Source: a virus (Duplodnaviria > Caudoviricetes). From it: a stretch of 36,286 nucleotides of DNA. Shown here in pieces: positions 1,687 to 8,670 of the stretch (positions are counted from its first letter, which is position 1; each line of letters begins with the position of its first letter). The translations under genes were made by a program, and so were the position numbers. Location: positions 1-36,286 of the IMG/VR virus record IMGVR_UViG_3300032303_000779. One strand, written 5' to 3'. Under the pieces are notes generated by a model. The model made no database searches. It saw only the letters and a program-made list of their open reading frames with translations, and had not been told where the DNA came from.

Positions 1687-3903
1687 ATGTTAGACATATA
1701 TGGAAATGATATTGGTGGTGAAGGTGGCTATGAAACTGAAGAAGAAAAGCGTCGTCGTCTAGCCGCTGAAGCAGAAGCTACCAACCAACCAGTTACACAA
1801 AAAATAACTTACAATCCAGATGGCACTCAAAAGATGACCATCACTGGTAGTCCTCAGGCTTTAAGTCCGGCTAACCCTAATACACCCACCGTGTCTGGTC
1901 CGGTAAATCCACTTGACACATTTGGCCGTATGCAACAGGTTGAATCAGGCAATCGTGATTACAATGCTCAAGGACAACCAATTACAAGTCCAGCCGGTGC
2001 CATGTTTCGCAATCAAGTTATGCCATCAACAGCAGCCAATCCTGGTTATGGAATACGGCCAGCTGCTGCACAAACTCCAGAAGAATACAATCGTGTAGGT
2101 CAAGAATACTATCAAGCCATGCTTCGACAGTTTGGCGGGGATCAGCAAAAAGCAGTTGCGGCCTACAACGCAGGCCCAGGCCGTGTGCAACAAAATATGC
2201 AGGCCAATGCTGGCCAATTGAATCCACAACAGTTACCACCAGAAACACAAGGTTACTTGCAAAAAGTTCTAGGTCCTGTGTTAAATGCTGTGGTTCCAAG
2301 TGCTCAAGCAGCACCTGCACCACAACCAGCATCCGCAGTTCCTGTTAATGCTCAAGCACAAGCACAAGCAATTCAAAATAAACAAGGTTTAAACTTTGCT
2401 AATGCAAATATACCTGCACCACAACCTGCACCTGCCGCACCAGTTAGTCCAACAGCACCGCCAGCGGCTGCTGCTCCAGCAGAACCGATGGGTCCAAGCA
2501 CTACAGCAATGACTCCTGAAGCATGGGCAGAGCGTTTGAACACTGCTCGTCAGGATGATCGTCAATTGGCCAGTTTGGCCTATGATCCAAATATTCCACA
2601 GTATATTCGTGAAGAAGCTTCAGCTGACATGTATAAACGCTTACAGGCTGCTAAAAATGAAACTGCTACCAAAGCCAAACTACAAGAAGGTATTGCGTCA
2701 GGTGACATGAGCGAAATCAACCGCATTATGAAACGCGGCGGCGAAGAAGGTTCATGGATGAAATATCTATTTTTTGGATTACTTGGTAGTGATGCTGCTA
2801 AAATAGAGCGTCAAAAACTATTTCCAGATGAAGGATCAAAAGTTGTTGCCTTTACAGGAGTGGATGGCCGCCAAGGTCTAATCAGACAGGCCGCTGATGG
2901 CAGTCCATTATTTGGACGCTTTGATGATGGCAAAGAATTAGATTCTAAACAGTTGATTCAATATGCAACTGGTGGTGGTAAACTTGGCAAAGGCACAAGC
3001 CTAAGCAGTGAAGTGTATGTTGATACAACTACAGGAAATCGCTATCGTTCAGGATATGACACAGCTGGCAATACAGCCTTGGTCAATGTGCAAGGCGGTG
3101 CTCCGTTCCGTGGCAATCCTAAAAATCTTGAAGTGCAAAGTATTGGCACTGCAATTAGCAAAGCTGAAGGCACCAAAGCAGTTGAATTGCGTTATACAGG
3201 TCCTATTGCTTACACCAAAGCAGGTGCTGATGCCGCCGGAGAATTCAACTTTAAACATGGCACAAACATTGGTTACCAAAGTCAACAACCAGGTGCTCCA
3301 TTGGTAGATTTGAATACTGGTCGTCCTGTTGTTCCTAACTCAAACGGCACAATTACAGCTACCACAGGTGGTGGTGCCGCTGTTACAGCAGGTGCTCCTG
3401 GTGCACCCGGCACAGCTGGCAAAACTCCTGCTGACATTCAAGGCGAATTTGATGCCAATAAAAAGATTCGCGAAAGTGTTGCTAAGAATCAACAGCAAGT
3501 TAAACAGATATATCCATTTATCAACACCATTAAAGGCCTTATTGACAAGAGCACAAGTAGTGGTATTGGTAGTTTGGTTGACGAAGCTGGCAACTGGTTT
3601 GGTTACAGCACTGATGGTGCTGATGCTATTGCCGCTATTAAACCTTTGGCCAATAAAGTATTAATGGGTGTTGAACGCTTTGAAGGACCACAAAGTGATT
3701 TGGATGTTAAATCATACAAAGAAGCCGCTGGTCAGTTGGCTGATCCAAAAGTTCCTGCAAGTCAAAAGCAAGCCGCATTCAATACCATTATCGAAATCAT
3801 GAAGCGTAATGCTCCTGAGCTTGATTGGTCTGCTTATGGCACAGCTGAAGACAACAGTCCGGCTGCCAAAGCCAAGCGTGAATTAGAAAAACGGAAGAAA
3901 TAA
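1687..3903 (+). CDS. Internal virion protein with a lytic transglycosylase (SLT/lysozyme-like) domain
   Basis: Motifs QVESG, QVMPSTA, AAYNAGPG and ETQGYLQKV in the N-terminal third. Confidence 0.8.
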   Translation: MLDIYGNDIGGEGGYETEEEKRRRLAAEAEATNQPVTQKITYNPDGTQKMTITGSPQALSPANPNTPTVSGPVNPLDTFGRMQQVESGNRDYNAQGQPITSPAGAMFRNQVMPSTAANPGYGIRPAAAQTPEEYNRVGQEYYQAMLRQFGGDQQKAVAAYNAGPGRVQQNMQANAGQLNPQQLPPETQGYLQKVLGPVLNAVVPSAQAAPAPQPASAVPVNAQAQAQAIQNKQGLNFANANIPAPQPAPAAPVSPTAPPAAAAPAEPMGPSTTAMTPEAWAERLNTARQDDRQLASLAYDPNIPQYIREEASADMYKRLQAAKNETATKAKLQEGIASGDMSEINRIMKRGGEEGSWMKYLFFGLLGSDAAKIERQKLFPDEGSKVVAFTGVDGRQGLIRQAADGSPLFGRFDDGKELDSKQLIQYATGGGKLGKGTSLSSEVYVDTTTGNRYRSGYDTAGNTALVNVQGGAPFRGNPKNLEVQSIGTAISKAEGTKAVELRYTGPIAYTKAGADAAGEFNFKHGTNIGYQSQQPGAPLVDLNTGRPVVPNSNGTITATTGGGAAVTAGAPGAPGTAGKTPADIQGEFDANKKIRESVAKNQQQVKQIYPFINTIKGLIDKSTSSGIGSLVDEAGNWFGYSTDGADAIAAIKPLANKVLMGVERFEGPQSDLDVKSYKEAAGQLADPKVPASQKQAAFNTIIEIMKRNAPELDWSAYGTAEDNSPAAKAKRELEKRKK

Positions 3904-4859
3904 TGGCATTAGACTACAGCAAGTTATCTACTGAAGAATTAGAAGCCATTGCCAATGATGATTACAGTCGTTTATCCACTGAAACATTGCAAGCATTGGC
4001 CGATGATCCAGATGCCGCAAAAGCACCTGGTGCAAAAAAGACTCCAGCTAGTTTAACACCACAAGGTGTTGATGTGGGTGATGCTGCCATGTTGGCCACA
4101 CCAGCACTGGCCGCTATAGCTCCTGCTATTCCGGGTGCTGTTAGTAGTGCATATCAAACAGGCAAGGCATTGGCAACTCCTGCGGCCAGTGCCGCACTTG
4201 ATTTAGGCAAGGCTTATTTGACCAAACCTGGAGCATTAGTAACTGATGTTGCTATGGGTGCTATGGGATTACCTCCTCCAACAGCAGCTGAACAAAGTTA
4301 TAAAGGTGTGCAAGGCACATATCAGACAGCAAGAGATTTGTTATCAAAACAGGGTCAATTTGCTCCCAAAGCCGCTCCGGTTGCTCCGGGACCATTTGCC
4401 GCAGCCGCAGAATTTCCAACAGCAGAACAAATTGCAAGAAATGCTACTTATACAGAAATGGCCGCAAGAGATGCCGCTGGAGCTGTTGCCAAACCAGGTG
4501 TAATGAGTCGTGTGGCACAAGGTGCAGGATCCTTATTATCCGGTGCCGGCACACTATTAAACAATGCTACACCAGCTATGAGCTTTGCTATGCCATATCA
4601 AATGGCTGGTGCCGAAATGGAAAAGATTCGGGCCAACCCCACAGCACCAGAATATGCTACCAATCCGTATGCACAAATGACTCGTGGTGAAGCCACAACA
4701 CAAGGAGCGGCCGGTGCTGCTAATCGTCGTCAAGCAATAGCCAGACAACAGTATGGTGGATTGACAGAAGCAGAACAACGCATATTAGAAAGCGATAGAT
4801 TAAATATGGCCATACGCTTACGGGCCGCAAAGAAAGTATTAGGACCAGTAGCACCTTAA
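3903..4859 (+). CDS. Ala-rich probable ejection/internal virion protein
   Basis: Coupled to the upstream gene (TAATG); N-terminal DYSKLSTEEL/DYSRLSTETL duplication. Confidence 0.55.
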   Translation: MALDYSKLSTEELEAIANDDYSRLSTETLQALADDPDAAKAPGAKKTPASLTPQGVDVGDAAMLATPALAAIAPAIPGAVSSAYQTGKALATPAASAALDLGKAYLTKPGALVTDVAMGAMGLPPPTAAEQSYKGVQGTYQTARDLLSKQGQFAPKAAPVAPGPFAAAAEFPTAEQIARNATYTEMAARDAAGAVAKPGVMSRVAQGAGSLLSGAGTLLNNATPAMSFAMPYQMAGAEMEKIRANPTAPEYATNPYAQMTRGEATTQGAAGAANRRQAIARQQYGGLTEAEQRILESDRLNMAIRLRAAKKVLGPVAP

Positions 4860-4868
4860 GGAAACCAA

Positions 4869-5306
4869 ATGACAGATCTAATCGAAAAATTAACCCAAGT
4901 ATTCAACACCAATTTTGTAACTTACTACAGAACACATGTAGCACATGTGAATATTGTGGGTCGTAATTTTTATAGTGATCACAAATTGCTACAAAAAATT
5001 TACGAGGAATTGCAAGGCGATATCGACACAATCGCCGAGTTTTTACGCACTTTAGCCGCAGTTATGCCAGAAAGTCTGGACACAGTTGTAAAAGGTTCTA
5101 AAATCGATGACGAGGATGTGTTTGGCACAGCAGATGAATTGTTGGCTGGTGTTTTAACTGATTTGACCACATTGATTGCCTTATACCGCGACCTAGAAGA
5201 AGAAGCTGACATGGCCGGCGAAGATCAAATTGCCAATTTTGCACAAGACCGCGAAACAGTGTTCAACAGATTTAGTTGGATGTTGCGTAGCACACTAGAA
5301 GAGTAA
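4869..5306 (+). CDS. dps: Dps-like ferritin-superfamily protein
   Basis: HVNIVGRNFYSDHKLLQKIYEE...DTIAEFLR and C-terminal WMLRS match the Dps signature; 145 aa; RBS AAGGA. Confidence 0.85.
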   Translation: MTDLIEKLTQVFNTNFVTYYRTHVAHVNIVGRNFYSDHKLLQKIYEELQGDIDTIAEFLRTLAAVMPESLDTVVKGSKIDDEDVFGTADELLAGVLTDLTTLIALYRDLEEEADMAGEDQIANFAQDRETVFNRFSWMLRSTLEE

Positions 5307-6970: not shown

Positions 6971-7144
6971 TCATCTTAACTTGGGATTACGCCGTTGTAG
7001 TTCTGTGGCAAACATAGTGGCAAGTCCGCGGTCAGTGAGATTCATCACAGCCCATTTGAGATAATCCTCTGGGATATCCTTAATGAAGAAACCTTTATAC
7101 TTGCCAAATGGCATCTTAGTAAGTTCGTATTCTTGATATCTCAT
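6971..7144 (-). CDS. Small MPFGKYKG-motif protein (DUF3820-like)
   Basis: MPFGKYKG...DIPEDYLKW signature; likely start MRYQEY at 7144. Confidence 0.75.
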   Translation of the reverse strand: MRYQEYELTKMPFGKYKGFFIKDIPEDYLKWAVMNLTDRGLATMFATELQRRNPKLR

Positions 7145-7159
7145 AGCTAATAATAACAC

Positions 7160-7630
7160 TATTTGAGATCTCTTGCGAGATCTATTGAGCAACTTCGTAG
7201 CTCAATGCGTTCTTTTAACTAATTAAGAGATCATTTGACAGATAGATTGATCAGAGTGCCACTATCCGAAGTAGTGGCGTATCTTTGACGAGTGAGTCGA
7301 TCCGTCGTTACCAGCAGGTGTTTAGTAAGTATTCGAAGTATTGCTTGGGCTCAACGCTTACCCAGACCTGCCGCGACTTTTAAGAGAACTTTTCAGTGGC
7401 TGTTTTGTTCTCATAGCAATAGTAATCTTCTAACCATTCCGATTACGCAAATCGTCATCCGTTCGTCAGGATTCTCAACTAATGGGACTATTCTTTCAGG
7501 CTACTCTTCAGTAGTGCGTAAAAGCCACCCGACAGATACGAGCGATTTGGTTGCCGTCACACATCAGAACGGATTCACCAGCACAATAGATATTCGGCGT
7601 GCCAACCTTGTCTGTAACTACATCTCCAAC
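7160..7630 (-). ncRNA. Large structured non-coding element (candidate ncRNA and/or replication origin)
   Basis: About ten stems, long-range and pseudoknot pairings, C(UUCG)G and GCAA tetraloops on the minus strand, TAAATA box directly upstream (7634-7639), no credible ORF. Confidence 0.65.
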
Positions 7631-7633
7631 ACA

Positions 7634-7639
7634 TATTTA
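7634..7639 (-). promoter_or_regulatory. TAAATA box at the 5' end of the large structured element
   Basis: CTAAATA on the minus strand, just downstream of a terminator. Confidence 0.6.
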
Positions 7640-7658
7640 GTTGACTAATTTAATTGCC

Positions 7659-7698
7659 AAAGAAAAACCCCCAAGATGGCTTAATAACTTGGGGGTTT
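7659..7698 (-). terminator. Rho-independent terminator
   Basis: 11-bp stem AAACCCCCAAG(7665-75)/CTTGGGGGTTT(7688-98) followed by a U-tract on the minus strand. Confidence 0.8.
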
Positions 7699-7790
7699 GG
7701 GTTCGCCGTTTTGTTGAAAGTTGGAGACTTAAACAGATAGGTTGGCTAGTGCAAAAACTTTAATTAACTAGAAAAAAGGATTTCCTGCAC
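7660..7790 (-). ncRNA. Candidate ~130-nt small RNA complementary to the 5' end of the large element
   Basis: Bounded by a CTAAATA box (7796-7801) and a terminator; 7720-7746 is an imperfect inverted copy of 7601-7630. Confidence 0.45.
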
Positions 7791-7798
7791 ACAAATAT

Positions 7799-8083
7799 TT
7801 AGTCTCGCGGCGGTATAGTGTAGAATTGTGGCGTCATTTCACCACGCAATCCACGGCAACAGGTCAACAACAGGGCACGATAATACCATTCTTCACTGAC
7901 CGGATTGGGTTCCAAACTGCTCCAGGTAAGTGCAGTTTCCCATTCGATCAGGATCTCATCCAAGATGTTTGGTTCAGTGTCACGAATAATCTGTTCTGCT
8001 GTGTTTAATACAACAGCCAATTCTTCAGGGCTACAAAAACGATGTGGCACAGGGCCTATCTGTTGTAAATTAACGACAATCAT
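7799..8083 (-). CDS. Hypothetical protein, probably leaderless
   Basis: 94-aa ORF; TAAATA (8089-8094, minus) 5 nt before ATG, no SD. Confidence 0.7.
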   Translation of the reverse strand: MIVVNLQQIGPVPHRFCSPEELAVVLNTAEQIIRDTEPNILDEILIEWETALTWSSLEPNPVSEEWYYRALLLTCCRGLRGEMTPQFYTIPPRD

Positions 8084-8098
8084 ATGAGTATTTACGGC

Positions 8099-8127
8099 TT
8101 GACACAGCCAAAGCCCTGTGTTATACT
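8099..8127 (+). promoter_or_regulatory. Consensus sigma70 promoter
   Basis: TTGACA(8099-8104)-17 nt-TATACT(8122-8127) with extended -10 TG. Confidence 0.85.
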
Positions 8128-8157: not shown

Positions 8158-8340
8158 ATGAACTTTGAACAACTCAAACTACAGATGCACATGAGAAGTC
8201 TTTACGAGCGTCTGGGCACAATGGATGCAGAGCTAATGATTGTTGAAGCTTTTCGTAAAGAAATGGCGAGGAACGACAGGATTCAAGCACTTGCGGCCGC
8301 ACCTCATAAGAACTTGACCGCATGCGATCCCAGCGTTTGA
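8158..8340 (+). CDS. Small helical hypothetical protein, likely early/host-RNAP expressed
   Basis: 60-aa ORF directly downstream of the sigma70 promoter. Confidence 0.55.
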   Translation: MNFEQLKLQMHMRSLYERLGTMDAELMIVEAFRKEMARNDRIQALAAAPHKNLTACDPSV

Positions 8341-8388: not shown

Positions 8389-8410
8389 TATTTACCCAAA
8401 CGGTTAAATA
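8389..8410. promoter_or_regulatory. Back-to-back divergent TAAATA boxes
   Basis: TATTTA 8389-8394 (minus) and TAAATA 8405-8410 (plus), each 8 nt from an ATG (8380 minus; 8419 plus). Confidence 0.6.
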
Positions 8411-8418
8411 TGTGTATA

Positions 8419-8670
8419 ATGGCCAGACCAAAAATATCAGCAATAGAATCAACTAGAGTAGGCATGTTTGAATGGACAGTGGCCGAAACACCGGCCTACT
8501 GGGCAGTGCTACGCTATGAACAGCCCATCTACATAGTCAAGCAACACTGGTTGCAGGATAGAAAAAACTATCCCAGGACCACATTTAGCAACGCGGCACA
8601 TGCACAGAACTTGGCTGACAAGCTGAATGGCCTGTTTGAGACATCAGCCTATACCATAAGGAAATTATGA
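8419..8670 (+). CDS. Hypothetical protein MARPK...FSNAAHAQNLADKLN
   Basis: 83 aa from ATG 8419, just after the TAAATA box. Confidence 0.75.
   Translation: MARPKISAIESTRVGMFEWTVAETPAYWAVLRYEQPIYIVKQHWLQDRKNYPRTTFSNAAHAQNLADKLNGLFETSAYTIRKL

Follow-up and report, generated by a model that had tools for sequence, protein, structure and literature searches.

Comparative analysis of the window (the whole 36,286-bp stretch studied here, a complete virus genome with direct terminal repeats (DTR), record IMGVR_UViG_3300032303_000779) identifies a conserved, pseudoknotted RNA gene of ~400 nt followed by an AT-rich tract and DNA hairpins. The RNA is encoded on the minus strand, between about 7630 and 7234, with a TAAATA box ahead of it. 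We consider it reasonably likely that the element acts in cis as a ColE1/T4-like RNA-primed replication origin for the replisome of a co-infecting giant T4-like phage. The original prediction had offered a structured RNA or an origin recruiting a helper replisome. The structured RNA is borne out, and a helper-dependent RNA-primed origin is the leading explanation for a function that we infer. The features of the locus are:

7634..7639, minus strand: TAAATA box, T4-late-type promoter core
7434..7630, minus strand: Domain I, divergent Polynucleobacter-1-like (covariation; aligns with Rfam-positive copies)
7607-05/7598-96, minus strand: 5' H-type pseudoknot of Domain I (covariation)
7602-7599/7584-81, minus strand: helix P2 of Domain I
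7571-7554, minus strand: conserved 18-nt hairpin of Domain I
7521-15/7449-43, minus strand: closing helix of Domain I, listed with P4 and the CACUAC motif
7311..7417, minus strand: Domain II, type A, with helices 7412-09/7387-84 and 7371-66/7319-14, crossed by 7415:7345 and 7374-72/7356-54
7284..7292, minus strand: CUC plus repeat copy X1, GUCAAA (7289-7284), from the twin-repeat pattern
7258..7278, minus strand: spacer hairpin between the repeat copies, with a UUCG loop (covariation; folding)
7234..7242, minus strand: UCU plus repeat copy X2, GUCAAA (7239-7234), putative nucleation site of an RNA-DNA hybrid
7207..7233, minus strand: AT-rich tract, candidate DNA unwinding element (sequence)
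7166..7206, no strand assigned: pair of DNA-type hairpins with an inner C-GAA-G triloop and a C-GCAA-G loop, candidate patch for primosome loading
6971..7144, minus strand: 57-aa ORF, PF12843-like, directly downstream of the element and not constant across the family

All 11 stems originally proposed are perfect Watson-Crick matches where they were placed. Single-sequence folding is weak: the minimum free energy is no better than that of shuffled controls (z = –1.2 on both strands), and complementary 6-, 7- and 8-mers number 42, 13 and 3 (shuffle means 28, 7.2 and 1.8). Stem conservation was judged in alignment A1, which includes 26 homologues. Both conservation and covariation are seen for three stems: 7314-19/7366-71 (142/151 cells paired, 25 double changes), 7384-89/7407-12 (138/149 cells, 51 double changes) and 7258-64/7272-78 (124/168 cells, 36 double changes). 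Pairing is not conserved for 7422-27/7441-46 (81/155 cells), nor for the crossing pairs 7396-7401/7523-28 (76/143) and 7278-84/7534-40 (46/113). The pair 7457-64/7567-74 falls within an insertion confined to close relatives (27 cells), and 7501-05/7510-14 lies in a length-variable, poorly aligning hairpin (67/126 cells paired). The pair 7448-54/7543-49 is mostly invariant in sequence (112/159 paired, 5 double changes); the helix that truly covaries here, missing from the original list, is 7521-15/7449-43, with which the pair overlaps. The claim of pseudoknots stands, but they sit elsewhere than most of the crossing pairs proposed for them. The central pair of the 5' pseudoknot is paired in 49/53 cases, with G-C/C-G swaps, and both pseudoknots of Domain II cross the helix 7371-66/7319-14. 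We measured covariation with our own G-test against a tree-shuffled null, which is R-scape-like but not R-scape. Thirteen pairs reached E < 0.05 over the full length in 27 window-type sequences; six pairs did so in the 5' domain (53 sequences), and six pairs were found in 32 C-type sequences. Domain II is exchangeable, being of type A in the window and of types B, C and D in relatives.

The strand had been left in doubt, with G-U extensions said to favour plus. Helix cells (n = 611) hold 20 G-U against 2 A-C combinations, and GNRA-capped hairpins in the RNA body of 115 homologues number 52 in sense versus 7 in antisense orientation; the RNA is therefore on the minus strand. The ORF at 7292-7648 has no Pfam or PHROG match, and as a protein it is not conserved at homologous positions. 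The longest open frame on its strand spans 46–88 aa in 25/26 homologues and 113 aa in one, and we rejected it as a gene because the frame is not kept.

As predicted, the element starts right behind a TAAATA box, at 7634-7639 on the minus strand. We take TAAATA to be the core of the T4 late (gp55) promoter. Its overall count in the window is at chance (17 versus 16). Upstream of ORFs it is found 5–17 times in sense versus 0–4 times in antisense orientation in all 11 podophage genomes, and the corresponding numbers for two giant phages are 93/30 (G001) and 86/24 (G004). At most 75 nt upstream of the element, TAAATA is present in 28/31 non-redundant copies from bacterial assemblies, some of them probably phage contigs binned into MAGs, versus 0/31 in a control window. 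Among viral copies it stands just upstream in only 7/42 and 3/42. The late promoter thus characterises the islands and small phages and does not extend to the family as a whole. A late sigma factor is encoded by the family's giant phages (PHROGs), and a sigma70-like promoter is visible before one G001 copy; the sigma70-ECF model has no matches in five phage genomes.

The RNA had been put forward as a novel large ncRNA. This does not hold for the whole of it, since its 5' third belongs to the Polynucleobacter-1 family and is already catalogued as RF01718. By alignment, the window's 5' domain is a divergent relative of that family. The window itself gives no hit to Rfam, RF01718 included, at E ≤ 10; it is not found by an HMM built from 7 classic copies, and one built from 11 Rfam-type copies matches only 26 nt of it (E = 0.028). 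The link is transitive, because it runs through a shared exact hairpin, the order of elements and island copies that continue into the 3' module. Two homologues whose 18-nt hairpin is identical to that of the window reach 70 and 38.3 bits with RF01718 (gathering score 37 bits), and matches above the gathering score occur in 2/20 homologous loci and 4/5 giant-phage records. Alignment A4 joins the window to the Rfam-positive loci L130, L125 and L344. The features of RF01718 (three hairpins, CACUAYCC, and a multiloop closed by a covarying helix) can be traced in the window by alignment, in the same hairpin order; the window has CACUAC, a variant hairpin and an insertion. Beyond the Rfam part, classic island copies have the same middle domain and twin repeat (twin repeat in 11/12). 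Thus the 141-nt RF01718 model covers the initial third of an RNA that is longer and whose middle domains are exchangeable. In the 2010 survey, Polynucleobacter-1 has 16 examples and is listed as a possible cis-regulator; its table entries there mention no origin (Weinberg et al. 2010, PMC2864571). Rfam models of OLE, ROOL, GOLLD, raiA, MISL, introns and RNase P gave no hit in the window and 20 homologous loci. None of the papers listed by our literature search describes the RNA at full length, its twin repeat or a link to satellites, and the term 'Polynucleobacter-1' occurs in one paper only; the supplements of PMC10690425, with more than ten thousand candidate viral RNAs, may hold fragments.

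A resemblance to intergenic blocks in large freshwater myoviruses had been suggested, and homologues are indeed present in large freshwater T4-like phages, in genomes of 350–370 kb. Overall, the family occurs in T4-like giant phages, ~35 kb podophages and bacterial integrase islands. Full-length copies were found by nhmmer in 8/80 related podophage loci. Exact matches to the 18-nt hairpin in IMG/VR are estimated at ~220 and matches to the 5' motif at ~620 (119 retrieved for each), and GTDB assemblies hold 52 hairpin matches. Six loci that share only the 18-nt hairpin (L102, L103, L111, L135, L136 and L146) were excluded from homologue counts. Four of them (L102, L103, L111 and L136) are small phages in which the hairpin sits close to the 3' end of another long non-coding block, followed by short repeats; this is possibly a permuted or an unrelated RNA. 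Comparison of the window, L130 and L088 elements with cultured and annotated phages by blastn gave no match, and neither did a related-locus search with the neighbouring HNH-like ORF.

Copies in giant phages often stand just after a gp47-gp46-GIY-YIG block. The complete 372-kb genome G001 encodes PolB, a late sigma factor, gp46/47, RNase H, a clamp loader and DnaB, and carries three paralogues of the element, at 97,330, 240,553 and 322,605; G006 has at least two copies, and in G004 one was found. A two-piece tmRNA of betaproteobacterial type (L129 6115-6541) is located some 2 kb away from one of the G001 copies. The integrase islands belong to Polynucleobacter, Limnohabitans, Rhodobacteraceae and others, and carry DUF6641 and a clamp-loader-like ATPase (in L369 at 3354-4061 and in related islands; phrog_168, E 6e–24). 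The same islands encode small proteins whose N-termini resemble those of giant-phage proteins (MRFFEF...). These sequence likenesses suggest further hijacking of the helper.

The 3' part of the element has an organization of its own. The pattern CTC-X...hairpin...CT-X is present in 81/116 non-redundant elements, X being mostly 6–9 identical bases, versus 1 and 4 in controls and a shuffle mean of 1.0; the strict twin repeat is absent from the other 35 of the 116 copies. X is variable, with 21 different 5-mers among the 81 (ACATG accounts for 27/81), and the G001 paralogues differ in it, which fits nucleic-acid pairing better than the site of one protein. The complement of X occurs inside the element in only 5/81. 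This rarity, together with the difference between paralogues, indicates that the conserved feature is the match within each locus. The spacer between the repeats folds at z < –2 in 75/81, with a U-tract at its hairpin in 0/81, and A+T averages 0.73 in the 40 nt from X2 (81 homologues). Further downstream, the hairpins at 7166-7206, originally assigned to the RNA, are better read as DNA hairpins beyond its end. Hairpins of the C-GNA-G kind number 65 at +300..+600, on both strands, versus 7 elsewhere, and GCGN(N)AGC occurs at 3.7 per kb in this interval versus 0.41–0.47 genome-wide (~nine-fold); the strict GCGN(N)AGC word is absent from the window's own patch. GNA mini-hairpins are described as far stabler as DNA than as RNA, and such mini-hairpins mark the priming sites of G4, St-1 and alpha3 (PMC13037366). 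When whole genomes were scanned with a loose 'hairpin patch' motif, the putative origin did not stand out.

Since the element combines the layouts of ColE1 and of T4 oriF/oriG, we interpret it as an RNA-primed origin. Transcription from the TAAATA promoter would be started by the helper's gp55-type sigma factor. The RNA would fold during transcription, its spacer hairpin bringing X1 beside the template strand at X2, where X1 would pair with the DNA and nucleate a persistent hybrid, much like the ColE1 rG/dC stretch. This hybrid would enter the AT-rich tract, where its 3'-OH, perhaps produced through cleavage by RNase H, would be available to the family-B polymerase of the helper, and the displaced strand would expose GNA mini-hairpins on which helicase and primase could load. 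The giant phages' own copies would serve them as multiple origins.

In ColE1, the rG stretch of the folded primer RNA pairs with a template dC stretch to form a persistent hybrid, which can also activate synthesis without priming (PMC4412123). The element resembles this system in its promoter-like box, its long folded RNA (a predicted transcript), the availability of RNase H, signals on the displaced strand and an upstream word able to pair with downstream template DNA; such a word, complementary to the template near the putative origin, is provided by the twin repeat in 81/116 elements. The element differs from ColE1 in having an A-rich word that varies between copies instead of an rG/dC run, a promoter of phage-late type and a polymerase that would be of phage family B; no sequence likeness to ColE1 is expected. 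A consensus scan revealed no sigma70-like antisense promoter in the element that would correspond to that of RNA I. With T4 oriF/oriG the element shares a promoter with a downstream AT-rich tract as candidate unwinding element, and would share a T4-type replisome and several origins per genome. T4 origins are ~100 bp long and sequence-independent and have MotA-dependent middle promoters, whereas the element is a ~400-nt covarying RNA, and the small elements, the window included, have a late-type box. At oriF/oriG, which consist of a promoter and an AT-rich unwinding element, an R-loop primes gp43; a folded RNA is not required there, transcription starts from middle promoters, and late in infection UvsW unwinds the R-loops and so shuts the origins off (PMC3016281). 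These last three points count against the origin reading. Cumulative GC skew is not diagnostic here: it follows the coding strand, with a minimum inside a copy in G001 but not in G004. Also weighing against the origin reading are the small number of viral copies with TAAATA just upstream, the 35 copies without the strict twin repeat, the large share of a single word (ACATG) and the lack of the strict GCGN(N)AGC word in the window's own patch.

The element shares its slot in the genome with protein modules. The 28 podophage loci that reach the slot region contain it in 8 cases, and two further loci have a divergent block with the same hairpin patch. Divergent elements ending in the same hairpins are present at L009 (~1600-2300) and L025 (~1100-1800, both minus strand), where a predicted ORF of ~150 aa overlaps them. 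L077 has PrimPol (PF09250) and DUF5906 in place of the RNA, and others have ORFs of 250–510 aa without a known family. Near-complete podophage genomes (≥90% complete; the window and 10 of 22 records looked up) contain the RNA in 6/11 cases. The RNA-less genomes include G012, with DUF3987 and, outside the slot, PrimPol, G013, with DUF5906 outside it, G009 and G010, with unassigned ORFs in the slot, and G014, with a 700-nt non-coding block and a similar hairpin patch; the Pfam scan covered 28/61 non-shared protein clusters of these podophages. The G014 block (L426 8219-8921) follows a 268-aa ORF, is unmatched by the RNA profiles and has a repeated word around a hairpin; it is probably a further RNA type. 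The ORF replacing the RNA in G010 and L078 contains the A-rich tract and the hairpin patch within its 5' end.

Bacterial islands show the same alternation. We took the 40 DUF6641 islands with the best scores out of 101 listed matches; in the slot behind TAAATA, 12 have the RNA, 18 have a repeat-plus-ORF module (149–177 aa ORF, 6–9 GTTGC/GCAAC repeats) and none has both (Fisher test, P = 1.2e–4, kinship ignored). In the podophage genomes and islands examined, the RNA was never found together with a protein alternative, which we count in favour of the origin reading. Such mutual exclusion in one slot is expected whatever the modules do, and does not prove that they do the same job. Searches assigned no function to the slot proteins other than PrimPol and DUF5906 (those of 263 aa and 383–415 aa and the island protein). 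The AF2 core of a 263-aa slot protein is confident, with no usable Atlas hit and no informative PDB match (best Z 5.4), and the island slot protein (AF2 pLDDT 86.9) has no PDB match at E ≤ 0.001. The best viral structural matches of the latter are uncharacterised phage proteins of 244 and 261 aa (TM about 0.6), for which we found no tie to the 263-aa family, and profile comparison of the 263-aa and island slot families was not significant. A 415-aa slot protein has only weak structural neighbours, among DUF5906/D5 helicase clusters.

Several other readings of the element were weighed. A trans-acting ornate RNA (scaffold, decoy or interference RNA, like OLE, ROOL or GOLLD) made during giant-phage infection would agree with the large multi-domain pseudoknotted fold and its own promoter, and islands could turn such an RNA against the phage. 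We regard it as unlikely, since it leaves unexplained the repeat word matching its own locus, the DNA-type hairpins on both strands, the three divergent paralogues in one genome and the exchange with PrimPol/helicase, and Rfam gives no hit to these RNA classes. Alternatively, the origin could work at the DNA level: transcription would open the duplex, the AT tract and hairpins would act, and the RNA would be a platform for helper proteins, not a primer. The hairpin patch kept where an ORF replaces the RNA would be explained in this way, and the ColE1 hybrid, too, can activate without priming (PMC4412123), but strand-specific G-U pairs and GNRA loops imply selection on the RNA and the twin repeat points to RNA-DNA pairing, which makes this quite improbable.

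There is little to recommend a cis-regulatory leader of the downstream gene, the possibility flagged for Polynucleobacter-1 in 2010 (PMC2864571): the element does lie between a promoter and a same-strand gene, but the genes that follow it in giant phages, in podophages and in islands are not related to one another, and a terminator-like U tract is lacking. A packaging signal or prohead RNA would suit capsid-less islands, which would need the helper's packaging machinery; the podophage has its own terminase, portal and capsid of unrelated type, and the element is absent from close relatives, so we give such a role very little weight. Equally improbable is a guide RNA for the upstream GIY-YIG nuclease, or a template for a repeat-jumping reverse transcriptase. 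Many giant-phage copies do start right behind a GIY-YIG-type gene, and repeats are typical of template jumping; against this, the window has no GIY-YIG hit, the gene upstream of the syntenic G001 copy is an RNase H gene, and RVT_1 matches none of the five phage genomes searched.

Returning to the RNA-primed origin, a broader scenario can be put forward tentatively, and we hold it to be somewhat less than probable. Widespread ~35 kb podophages would make their own virions but live as parasites of 350–370 kb T4-like phages, on which they would rely for replicating their DNA and for late transcription. The means would be a portable, folded RNA origin, a copy of the helper's, whose variable word has to match its own gene; the same origin, exchangeable with protein initiators, would arm islands of Polynucleobacter and other aquatic bacteria. 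PLE of ICP1, PICIs and P4 are satellites that use protein initiators and borrow capsids or tails. The podophage is like them a small element without replication or late-transcription genes that would be keyed to helper signals; unlike them, it encodes its own virion and would borrow transcription and replication. If true, an orphan Rfam motif would gain a function and be revealed as a third of a large, modular RNA of which aquatic viruses carry hundreds of copies. Alongside ColE1, the element would stand as a second natural example of a folded RNA that primes an origin; the phage would represent a kind of satellite that owns its virion and borrows a giant phage's sigma factor and replisome. 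The twin word offers a clean compensatory-mutation test, and the idea is testable because cultured Polynucleobacter strains carry the island form.

The genome around the element encodes an SU10-type portal and capsid, a terminase and tail proteins. Polymerase, primase, helicase and sigma families have no matches among the 42 window ORFs scanned (Pfam, PHROG), and six-frame searches of the window for sigma70-ECF, reverse transcriptase and DnaB were negative. Judging from its predicted genes, the phage appears to be without replication and late-transcription genes of its own; unannotated ORFs could hide an initiator. A near-perfect sigma70 promoter (11/12, extended –10) is predicted at 8099-8127 on the plus strand, ahead of a 60-aa ORF at 8158-8340, which is a candidate for a gene expressed without the helper. 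This predicted promoter shows the phage to be not wholly dependent on late-type promoters and is a point against the origin reading. DNA contigs from four public runs cover parts of the stretch, with variants, and the best-covering run confirmed the assembly across the element. The description of the element as the genome's only long non-coding stretch is roughly right, but there is a second, smaller leader at 7645-7800. This leader (7645-7801, minus strand) lies behind a TAAATA at 7796-7801 and has two hairpins; similar blocks occur in relatives both with and without the large RNA. Elsewhere in the window, a Dps/ferritin gene (4869-5306) is kept across the podophage family, and an 86-aa ORF (8410-8670) has homologues in both giant phages examined.
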